IMG/VR virus record: IMGVR_UViG_2711768034_000010
DNA: 12,525 nt
Reading direction: 5' to 3' (one strand)
Source of the DNA: a virus
Taxonomy: Duplodnaviria; Heunggongvirae; Uroviricota; Caudoviricetes
A model generated the notes under the pieces. The model made no database searches, was not told the origin of the DNA, and worked only from the letters and a program-made list of their open reading frames with translations. Positions 8,388-9,542 of the stretch are shown in pieces (position 1 is the stretch's first letter; the number at the start of each line of letters is the position of its first letter). Both the position numbers and the translations under genes were made by a program.

Positions 8388-9542
8388 ATGGAAAACTTCA
8401 AAGTACGTCTTAAAAATCACATTGAACATGTTAAAAATGTTAGAGAACACTGCACAACGGAAGAGACAACCAAGCAGGCTTTGATACTTCCTTTTTTGGA
8501 CATCCTAGGCTTTAACGCATATGATCCGCAAAAAGTCAAAGCTGAATATGGTGCGGACTTCCCTGGTGTGAAAGTGGGTGAGCGTGTAGATTATGCTCTA
8601 TTCTGCCAAGGTGTTCCCGTTATGTTTATTGAGGCCAAAGGTTGTAAAGAAAAAATGGACAACCATTGTCCTCAATTATCTAGGTATTTTAATTCTACTC
8701 CTGAGGTGACAATATCAGCAATTACTAATGGAATTGAATGGCGCTTTTTTACGGATCTCAATGAAAAAAATATAATGGATTCAACGCCATTTTTACGAAT
8801 CATGATGGATGACATTAAAGATTCTGATGCTGAGCAATTATTTAGATTCCGCCATGACAAATTCAAACCAGAGGCCCTAAGAACCCTTGCAGAAGAGAGT
8901 GTTTATATTTCTGCATTTGTTAAAGTCGTGAGTACAAGCCTTCGGGAAGTAGATCATGAATTTGTTAGATATGTTGCAGGACGAGCAAATATTGGTCGTC
9001 AATTAAATCAAAGATTTATAGAAACAATAACTCCATTGGTGAGGCAGGCCGTAGAGAGGTCAGTAAGTGAAATGGTTGTTTCTGGTCTTTCATCAAGAAC
9101 ATCTATTCCTGAATTAGAATCCCCTGCTGATGTAACTGAAAATAATGTAATTGATGAGCGCGCAGATATTGTCGATGCAGAGAACCCCAACATAGTAACA
9201 ACCTATAATGAAAGAATTTTATTTGAAAAAATCTGTTCTATTATAGGCCCTGCATACGAACTTCAAGCCAAAGATACAGAGTCCTATTACTCTATTCTTT
9301 TCCAAGGAAAAACAAACCGCTGGCTGGTTCGCTATTATGACAAGAAGAATCGCTCAAACATACAGTTACCAATTGATATCAATGAAATAACCGGTAATGA
9401 AATTAAAAGAGCCGGACTTGAACATGATAACAATCGTATTTTCATTGAACATCCCGAGGATGTATTAAGGATTTCAGGTTTAATCCTTGATTCTTTACAA
9501 TATGTACAGAATGATGAGAATTTCAGAAAGCGTCGTCCATAA
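8388..9542 (+). CDS. AT-rich gene in the rex-like slot: protein with N-terminal PD-(D/E)xK / HsdR-N-type nuclease signature and uncharacterised C-terminal half (candidate anti-phage defence or exclusion protein)
   Basis: ATG 8388 preceded by GGAGG (8379-8383). N-terminal region ...TTKQALILPFLDILGFNAYDPQKVKAEYGADFPGVKVGERVDYALFCQGVPVMFIEAKG shows the E...D...(E/I)EAK pattern of restriction-endonuclease-like folds. No Walker A seen. 18/60 G+C at 8641-8700 versus 30/60 at 10501-10560 (hand counts). Followed by a strong terminator. Confidence 0.8.
   Translation: MENFKVRLKNHIEHVKNVREHCTTEETTKQALILPFLDILGFNAYDPQKVKAEYGADFPGVKVGERVDYALFCQGVPVMFIEAKGCKEKMDNHCPQLSRYFNSTPEVTISAITNGIEWRFFTDLNEKNIMDSTPFLRIMMDDIKDSDAEQLFRFRHDKFKPEALRTLAEESVYISAFVKVVSTSLREVDHEFVRYVAGRANIGRQLNQRFIETITPLVRQAVERSVSEMVVSGLSSRTSIPELESPADVTENNVIDERADIVDAENPNIVTTYNERILFEKICSIIGPAYELQAKDTESYYSILFQGKTNRWLVRYYDKKNRSNIQLPIDINEITGNEIKRAGLEHDNNRIFIEHPEDVLRISGLILDSLQYVQNDENFRKRRP

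Follow-up and report, generated by a model that had tools for sequence, protein, structure and literature searches.

In phage lambda, rexAB follows cI inside the immunity region, in a unit that is closed by a terminator before OL/PL. The type IV and type IIM restriction enzymes (DpnI, PvuRts1I/AbaSI, Mrr and MspJI) are solitary, methyltransferase-less proteins of two modules, in which a PD-(D/E)xK head is joined to a reader domain that is winged-helix or SRA-like. Type I HsdR subunits and type IIG/IIL enzymes join their head to a superfamily 2 (SF2) motor or to a methyltransferase and target-recognition domain (TRD), and have a modification partner. Here we analysed a 12,525-nucleotide (nt) stretch of caudovirus DNA (IMG/VR record IMGVR_UViG_2711768034_000010; hereafter, the window) and describe an intact open reading frame (ORF) of 384 amino acids (aa) at 8388–9542 on the plus strand, which lies in a position like that of rexAB and has a head like those of the restriction enzymes. 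The encoded protein, an uncharacterised variant among the single-protein nucleases that prophages carry as immunity cargo, has already been catalogued under a misleading name. From its sequence and setting, we give an even chance to the reading that the gene encodes a stand-alone DNA endonuclease, held as accessory prophage cargo in the immunity operon, which cuts incoming DNA for defence or exclusion.

The N-terminal domain is an HsdR/RecB-type PD-(D/E)xK nuclease in which all catalytic positions are conserved. It matches the Pfam families HSDR_N (PF04313; 54.2 bits against a cut-off of 25.1) and HSDR_N_2 (PF13588; 25.0 bits against a cut-off of 25.0), both within residues 25–128. We compared homologues in two alignments: A1, of Enterobacterales proteins, and A2, of 25 family members with 27–54% identity. 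Residues E25, K29, G41, E53, D68, E82, K84, Q96, Y100, F101, G115, D123 and P134 are invariant in A2, so the D68...E82-x-K84 triad (D...ExK) and the Q96/Y100 QxxxY motif, which is associated with RecB-family and HsdR nucleases, are kept down to 27% identity. E25/E26 are also present and are invariant or nearly so. The E...D...EAK pattern that a sequence-only reading of this DNA had picked out thus falls on conserved residues (E25/E26, D68 and E82-A-K84). The head has a restriction-endonuclease-like fold that is closest to HsdR heads, and is shared with HsdR (Vibrio vulnificus 3h1t and EcoR124I), BpuSI and DrdV; the remainder of our protein carries neither a motor nor a methyltransferase/TRD and has a different C-terminal module.

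Behind the head come a helical middle region, then a linker that is acidic and disordered, and last an alpha/beta domain at the C terminus (Table 1). The AlphaFold2 model of the whole protein, built on alignment A2, has a mean predicted local distance difference test (pLDDT) score of 90.5, and the C-terminal domain modelled alone reaches 96. The sequence-only reading had recognised no motif in the C-terminal 270 aa. That stands as far as Pfam is concerned, with no match at E ≤ 1 for 25 C-terminal domains and hence no membership of YjbR/MmcQ or YdhG (DUF1801), but the models reveal both the helical region and a fold like those of YdhG, YjbR and the MotA C-terminal domain (CTD), known as the ‘double-wing’. 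The closest fold matches are a YdhG-like protein (9t2w, score 9.4), DR2400 (DUF419, 6.7), E. coli YjbR (6.5), the T4 MotA CTD (5jlt, 6.3) and PSPTO_3016 (6.2). The likeness is at fold level only, and YdhG (DUF1801), YjbR–MmcQ (DUF419) and MotA ‘double-wing’ domains, unlike the C-terminal domain described here, are not fused to a nuclease. Searches of PDB sequences with the protein, the family profile and a profile of the C-terminal domain gave no significant match, and these searches returned no solved structure for any family member.

Within this fold class are MotA-CTD and PSPTO_3016, which are DNA-binding proteins, and the C-terminal domain is presumed to be a recognition module. Its invariant residues in A1 are K295, Y300, K308, R311, W312 and R315; in A2, only T271, D296 and R315 are nearly invariant. 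Column identity falls from 0.84 (A1) and 0.44 (A2) in the N-terminal domain to 0.63 and 0.22 in the C-terminal domain, which fits a constant catalytic head with a diversifying recognition module; in the linker it is 0.24 and 0.11.

The immunity region of the window is the mirror image of the lambda cI–rexAB arrangement. In order, it comprises a cII-like gene, a cro-like gene, three operators, a RacR-type repressor gene, a 170-nt gap, the nuclease ORF, a terminator, two operators with a promoter, orf99, parB and int. The ORF lies on the same strand as the repressor gene, 170 nt downstream of it, and neither a terminator nor a plus-strand promoter is predicted in the gap. The start is probably ATG 8388, because a Shine–Dalgarno sequence (GGAGGA, 8379–8384) precedes it and Met1 (of MENFK) is invariant in homologues; an in-frame TTG at 8373 could also serve. 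The sequence-only reading had noted a strong terminator before OL-like operators, and the hairpin indeed folds with 9 pairs at −14.8 kcal/mol (z = −4.15; none of 200 shuffles folds as well) ahead of operators at 9612 and 9637. A pattern search with the operator consensus ATTAGGC-N3-GCCTAAT gave 6 sites across the window where 0.6 would be expected, a number that none of 200 shuffled sequences attained. As in the lambda cI–rexAB layout, the block of repressor and nuclease genes is flanked on both sides by repeated 17-base-pair (bp) operators, which bears out the earlier placement of the gene, directly behind the repressor on the same strand, in a rexAB-like slot. We infer that the gene is cotranscribed with the repressor in the lysogen, because there is no terminator between the two genes, a terminator follows the second, and operators stand on both sides. 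The gene had also been called AT-rich and moron-like: its G+C content is 37.0% (28% at third codon positions), compared with 44% for the repressor gene, 51% for cII, 54% for dam and 55.6% for parB. The sequence-only description of the locus thus holds in all its points.

The family is large. When 1.84 billion cluster representatives (clusters at 50% identity) were searched exhaustively with HMMER, a threshold of E ≤ 1e-3 gave 3,542 proteins and one of E ≤ 1e-30 gave 366; the majority are 340–420 aa in length and align across nearly their full length. Named members come from bacteria and archaea, including Enterobacterales, Pasteurellaceae, Betaproteobacteria, Bacillus, Clostridia (Roseburia and Eubacterium), Carboxydocella and Methanococcus. 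The identical protein occurs on at least 1,000 public contigs, chiefly of Klebsiella pneumoniae, and in the isolated Klebsiella phage KpF5. Among 5,426 complete E. coli genomes, 40 carry some homologue: 10 the allele described here or its remains, and 30 alleles of about 72% identity. A 100%-identical gene is found in the same neighbourhood, beside mtfA, in E. coli chromosomes. The ten E. coli genomes show four independent insertion sequence (IS) events within the equivalents of window positions 8218–9542 (loci L002, L003, L108 and L109): an IS1 near nt 1125 of the gene, an IS1 near nt 276, an ISKpn26 at nt 60 with the rest deleted (7 genomes), and an IS3 in the gap between repressor and nuclease genes (E. 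coli S1-INA-02-B). The undisturbed arrangement of the window is found in no complete E. coli genome of the collection.

In IMG/VR, 211 viral contigs carry a relative of the gene. We compared 83 loci, comprising the best 80 of these contigs, the window, KpF5 and one E. coli chromosome; neighbour counts are approximate owing to crude ORF calling, many loci are near-identical, and because 28 are ≥99.7% identical to the window gene, the counts are not phylogenetically independent. A repressor gene lies directly upstream on the same strand in 55 of the 83 loci. It is RacR-like in 30 (gap of 164–172 nt), of the S24 cI type in 22 (8–67 nt) and a short HTH_3 protein in 3 (36–40 nt); a divergent cro-sized ORF accompanies each type. 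These upstream repressors fall into at least 11 sequence types and three families, and the gap in other lineages is as small as 8–44 nt. Among 78 species-representative genomes, an HTH_3 gene is directly upstream in 21, 16 of them with S24.

The argument from the repressor slot, made for this window by the sequence-only reading, therefore extends well beyond it. In proteobacterial phages, homologues with 27–85% identity immediately follow repressors of at least three unrelated types, and the gene recurs behind unrelated repressors, and in lysogeny modules, across Proteobacteria, Firmicutes and Actinobacteria. Roseburia prophages have the order cro / cI–ImmA(M78)–gene–integrase–attB; pneumococcal phage IPP25 has repressor–ORF–gene–integrase; Corynebacterium phage Juicebox has repressor (gp34)–gene (gp33); Carboxydocella has a helix–turn–helix (HTH) gene–ORF–gene, followed at a distance by HigB/M78 and a serine recombinase; a Bacillus satellite-like element has cI–int–gene; and the Clostridium plasmid-prophage CWou-2020a has HTH regulators followed by the gene. 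Yersinia pseudotuberculosis (L105–L107, 4214–6158) carries an S24 cI-type repressor gene and a homologue as an orphan two-gene cassette, with no other phage genes nearby, flanked by an ompA-family gene on one side and an ABC-F gene on the other.

Other copies occupy other slots. In Porphyromonas phages the gene follows HicAB. Homologues also lie beside the antiterminator gene Q on the opposite strand, including in the Q–stx2 interval of an Stx2 phage; the interval between Q and the stx2 block is a classic site for morons. In the Stx2 prophage of E. coli JNEC-KY177 (L112, 4932–6089), a homologue with about 72% DNA identity lies on the opposite strand between Q and a methyltransferase/tRNA/stx2AB block. 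In one E. coli prophage lineage (L110 and L057–L081, about 5986–7161), the homologue sits inside the baseplate module, between a small ORF (phrog_7986) and baseplate J, with a promoter-like TTGACA-18-CAAAAT site just upstream. Tail-module and Q-adjacent copies together make up about a quarter of viral loci. By a loose detector, 41 of 50 distinct homologue flanks have a hairpin with a T-run within 150 nt downstream; the corresponding share of random windows is 27%. Taken together, the recurrence in the repressor slot, the other accessory slots, the lone copies and the downstream terminators characterise the gene as a self-contained moron, mobile and with a strong preference for the repressor operon. 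Its status as cargo is supported by the 37% G+C content, the other accessory hot-spots (Q–stx2 and the tail module) and the lack of an adjacent methyltransferase gene.

On this basis, the protein would be made in the lysogen and would cleave DNA, with the C-terminal domain selecting the target or supplying specificity. A single PD-(D/E)xK site cuts one strand, so two nuclease heads are probably brought together by the helical region, which would produce a double-strand break. The substrate would be incoming foreign DNA bearing a feature that neither host nor prophage DNA has, and such methyltransferase-independent, type IV-like restriction or exclusion would protect both the lysogen and the prophage against superinfecting phages. 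Like the type IV and IIM enzymes, the protein is a solitary nuclease of two modules, with no adjacent methyltransferase gene in any context examined, and one JGI record calls a family member a ‘predicted type IV restriction endonuclease’. It differs in that its C-terminal domain is YdhG/YjbR/MotA-CTD-like, unlike their readers; a dependence on modification is putative. The orphan-type dam gene of the prophage is no neighbour of it either: it lies at a distance of 1.5 kb, on the opposite strand.

Comparison with other described systems gave partial likenesses. With lambda rexAB, as with BstA of BTP1, the gene shares its nature as immunity-region cargo that is probably transcribed with the repressor and is closed by a terminator before OL/PL, and the repressor unit is likewise set between OR and OL; RexAB-type exclusion was nevertheless rejected, as lambda RexAB is two proteins, a sensor and a membrane channel, whereas the protein here is one soluble nuclease with no sequence relation to them. 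The name that NCBI gives the protein (WP_004184742.1), ‘type I restriction endonuclease (subunit R)’, was also rejected. Such a subunit would have an SF2 translocase motor, a length of about 800–1100 aa and adjacent hsdM/hsdS; this protein has 384 aa, has HSDR_N domains only, lacks the motor (ResIII/Helicase_C) and, with the HsdR equivalog PRK11448 (NCBIfam; cut-off 729 bits), reaches a score of 14 bits. No hsdM or hsdS gene was found in the window or in any homologue context examined. Shedu (SduA, DUF4263) was set aside in turn: neither the protein nor distant members have a PADLOC match to it, its domain order is reversed, and the likeness is at the level of the generic nuclease fold only.

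Judged from position only, defence or exclusion is the role with the best support, and several observations weigh against it. We identified no mechanism for discriminating self from non-self. The protein has no match in PADLOC-DB 2.0 (no RexAB match at E ≤ 0.1, and none to BstA, Shedu or any other model), and 25 distant members give only weak type IIG, Cas4 and PDC nuclease-domain matches there (best E 9e-8). We found no study of the family and no experimental paper on it. Lysogeny modules are not the only setting of the gene: in about 21 of the 83 loci (the E. coli lineage noted above) it is part of a tail module, in five Serratia species it follows an isochorismatase gene, and Methanococcus has a lone copy among housekeeping genes. 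In E. coli, an IS element lies in or just upstream of the gene in 10 of 10 genomes with this remnant; as all ten copies are hit, the gene is dispensable there, and either counter-selection or an AT-rich target for IS elements may lie behind the repeated insertion. Finally, the fold class of the C-terminal domain includes proteins that do not bind DNA, so that DNA binding by this domain is putative; its top match is the frataxin-like YdhG, and the domain is mildly acidic (isoelectric point 5.7).

These last features of the C-terminal domain would suit an abortive-infection nuclease, which we consider a minority possibility. Such an enzyme would be inactive in the lysogen until its C-terminal domain sensed a phage protein or replication intermediate, and would then cleave DNA indiscriminately, stopping both phage and cell, with a logic that, at the same low likelihood, can be compared to that of Shedu or HepS. 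The lack of a methyltransferase or other self-marking partner in any context points the same way, the repeated IS disruption in E. coli would fit latent toxicity, and other single-protein nucleases of prophages act in this manner, for example HepS (PMC13043305). On the other side, the trigger is putative, the fold class contains proven DNA binders (MotA-CTD, 5jlt), and sequence and fold alone do not separate this mode of action from direct restriction. Within the defence-nuclease reading, we favour direct restriction, by a clear though not a commanding preference, over trigger-activated abortive infection.

The gene often adjoins an integrase gene, and lone chromosomal copies lie near housekeeping genes in Methanococcus and Serratia, as might be expected of an enzyme of DNA metabolism that acts in recombination or repair, processes DNA for integration or excision, or degrades transforming DNA that could cure the prophage. 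We think this improbable. Most relatives of the same phages do without the gene (a homologue is present in only 40 of 5,426 E. coli genomes), and it occupies unrelated slots in different phages. This patchy presence, the shifting slots and the foreign base composition argue for optional cargo and not for a core function in lysogeny or replication. It is less probable still, and in our view very unlikely, that the gene in this window has no function and is merely carried along by a remnant in decay. The loss of late genes, the RusA::tail-fibre fusion described below, and the E. coli sister copies, all damaged by IS elements or separated by them from the repressor, are what such a passenger would leave behind; against this, the gene in the window is undamaged and has the same sequence as the Klebsiella allele of at least 1,000 contigs, and the repressor, operators, Shine–Dalgarno sequence and terminator are all intact.

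The sequence-only reading had also called the gene a candidate novel defence gene. ‘Novel’ is too strong a word: the exact protein is widespread, it bears an NCBI name, and in PHROGs it is matched over its whole length by phrog_4225 (PHROG 4225), ‘endonuclease’, at E 2e-152. DefenseFinder reportedly includes FS_HsdR_like, a single-gene system of phage-inducible islands. By name alone, this is a single HsdR-like protein on a phage-related mobile element, and one homologue of the protein described here, from Bacillus, likewise lies in a satellite-like element; there is a real, if minor, chance that the two families are the same and the finding is hence already known. Other prophage defences, HepS (a HEPN protein; PMC13043305) and GiPD474 (an ATPase), are unrelated to the protein. 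A domain-centric discovery paper mentions neither HsdR nor PF04313/PF13588, the main text of the DefensePredictor paper does not mention HsdR, PF04313 or PDDEXK, and a paper on pneumococcal lysogeny modules names other cargo genes.

Table 1 Features of the nuclease gene and its surroundings in the window
Feature	Positions	Strand	Details
Dam-family adenine methyltransferase gene	6028–6867	−	PADLOC ‘orphan methyltransferase’ models, E 1e-77
cII-like gene	6895–7419	−	
Cro-like regulator gene (YdaS/P22_Cro HTH)	7376–7666	−	Divergent from repressor gene; Pfam YdaS_toxin E 3.7e-30, P22_Cro E 5e-7
OR-like operator cluster	7673–7749		Three 17-bp sites (starting at 7673, 7698 and 7733) in the cro–repressor interval
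RacR-type prophage repressor gene	7741–8217	+	158 aa; RefSeq WP_004184740.1 ‘RacR’ at identical locus
Repressor–nuclease intergenic gap	8218–8387	+	Contains the Shine–Dalgarno sequence GGAGGA at 8379–8384
HsdR-type PD-(D/E)xK nuclease domain	8388–8792	+	aa 1–135
Catalytic codons	8589–8591, 8631–8633, 8637–8639, 8673–8687	+	D68, E82, K84 and QxxxY (Q96/Y100), respectively
Helical middle region	8793–9101	+	aa 136–238; pLDDT about 85–95; helices 145–152, 161–186, 190–199 and 208–238
Acidic disordered linker	9102–9173	+	aa 239–262; net charge −6; pLDDT <50 for 239–253
C-terminal alpha/beta domain and stop codon	9174–9542	+	aa 263–384; YdhG/YjbR/MotA-CTD ‘double-wing’-like fold
Intrinsic terminator closing the repressor–nuclease unit	9571–9599	+	Hairpin 9571–9592 and T-run
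OL-like operators	9612–9655	+	Sites at 9612 and 9637, overlapping the PL-like promoter
PL-like promoter	9627–9655		TTGACA-17-TAACAT; rightward, towards parB and int

The window represents a prophage remnant, some 11.7 kb in size, integrated beside tRNA-Ser(cga) (12399–12488); an Rfam scan of the window found nothing besides this tRNA. The RefSeq form of the Cro-like regulator has 87 aa, corresponding to 7376–7639, and the 158-aa repressor has only weak HTH matches in Pfam. A chimeric ORF at 5176–6018 (minus strand) resembles RusA resolvase (phrog_34) over residues 1–63 and a tail-fibre or fibre-assembly protein (phrog_863) over residues 81–280. This fusion points to an internal deletion, which seems to have taken out Q and the lysis, head and most tail genes, and the window is accordingly a defective remnant. 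At its left edge are a C-terminal fragment of an IS3-family transposase gene (16–282, plus strand) and a truncated integrase-like ORF (253–666, minus strand), which are further evidence of decay.

The remnant also retains a gene for a tail-fibre or tailspike-like protein (1747–3810, minus strand; ‘sialate O-acetylesterase’ in RefSeq), which adjoins a very AT-rich acyltransferase-3 gene (4106–5197, plus strand; 35% G+C). The two look like an O-antigen acetylation/deacetylation (serotype-conversion) pair. A sixth operator-like site at 4103–4119 (ATAATGCTTGGCCTAAT, with 2 mismatches) overlaps the acyltransferase start codon; it could be a chance match, of which 0.6 are expected in each window, or could indicate that the repressor controls the acyltransferase gene. 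In KpF5 (L001, 6847–7770), L004 and L010–L012, an rdgC-like gene (307–367 aa) lies between the nuclease terminator/OL region and orf99. Its absence from the window marks a second variable cargo slot beside the first.

The synteny is broad and consistent and the enzymology is strong; the function is one that we infer. If it is correct, a very common prophage gene of Klebsiella and other Enterobacterales is mis-annotated as a ‘type I restriction endonuclease’, and a single-gene immunity determinant has been missed by PADLOC-DB 2.0, the one defence library tested. This would matter for the prediction of phage susceptibility, for example in phage therapy of K. pneumoniae, and would add a new nuclease-plus-reader architecture to restriction enzymology. 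More tentatively, and with the chances against it, the family may found, by function, a pan-prokaryotic group of methyltransferase-independent restriction enzymes, in which an HsdR-type head and a double-wing reader of a phage DNA feature or phage protein would form portable immunity in the repressor operons of temperate phages. The conserved position behind unrelated repressors, seen in at least three phyla, provides a simple rule for finding such cargo.

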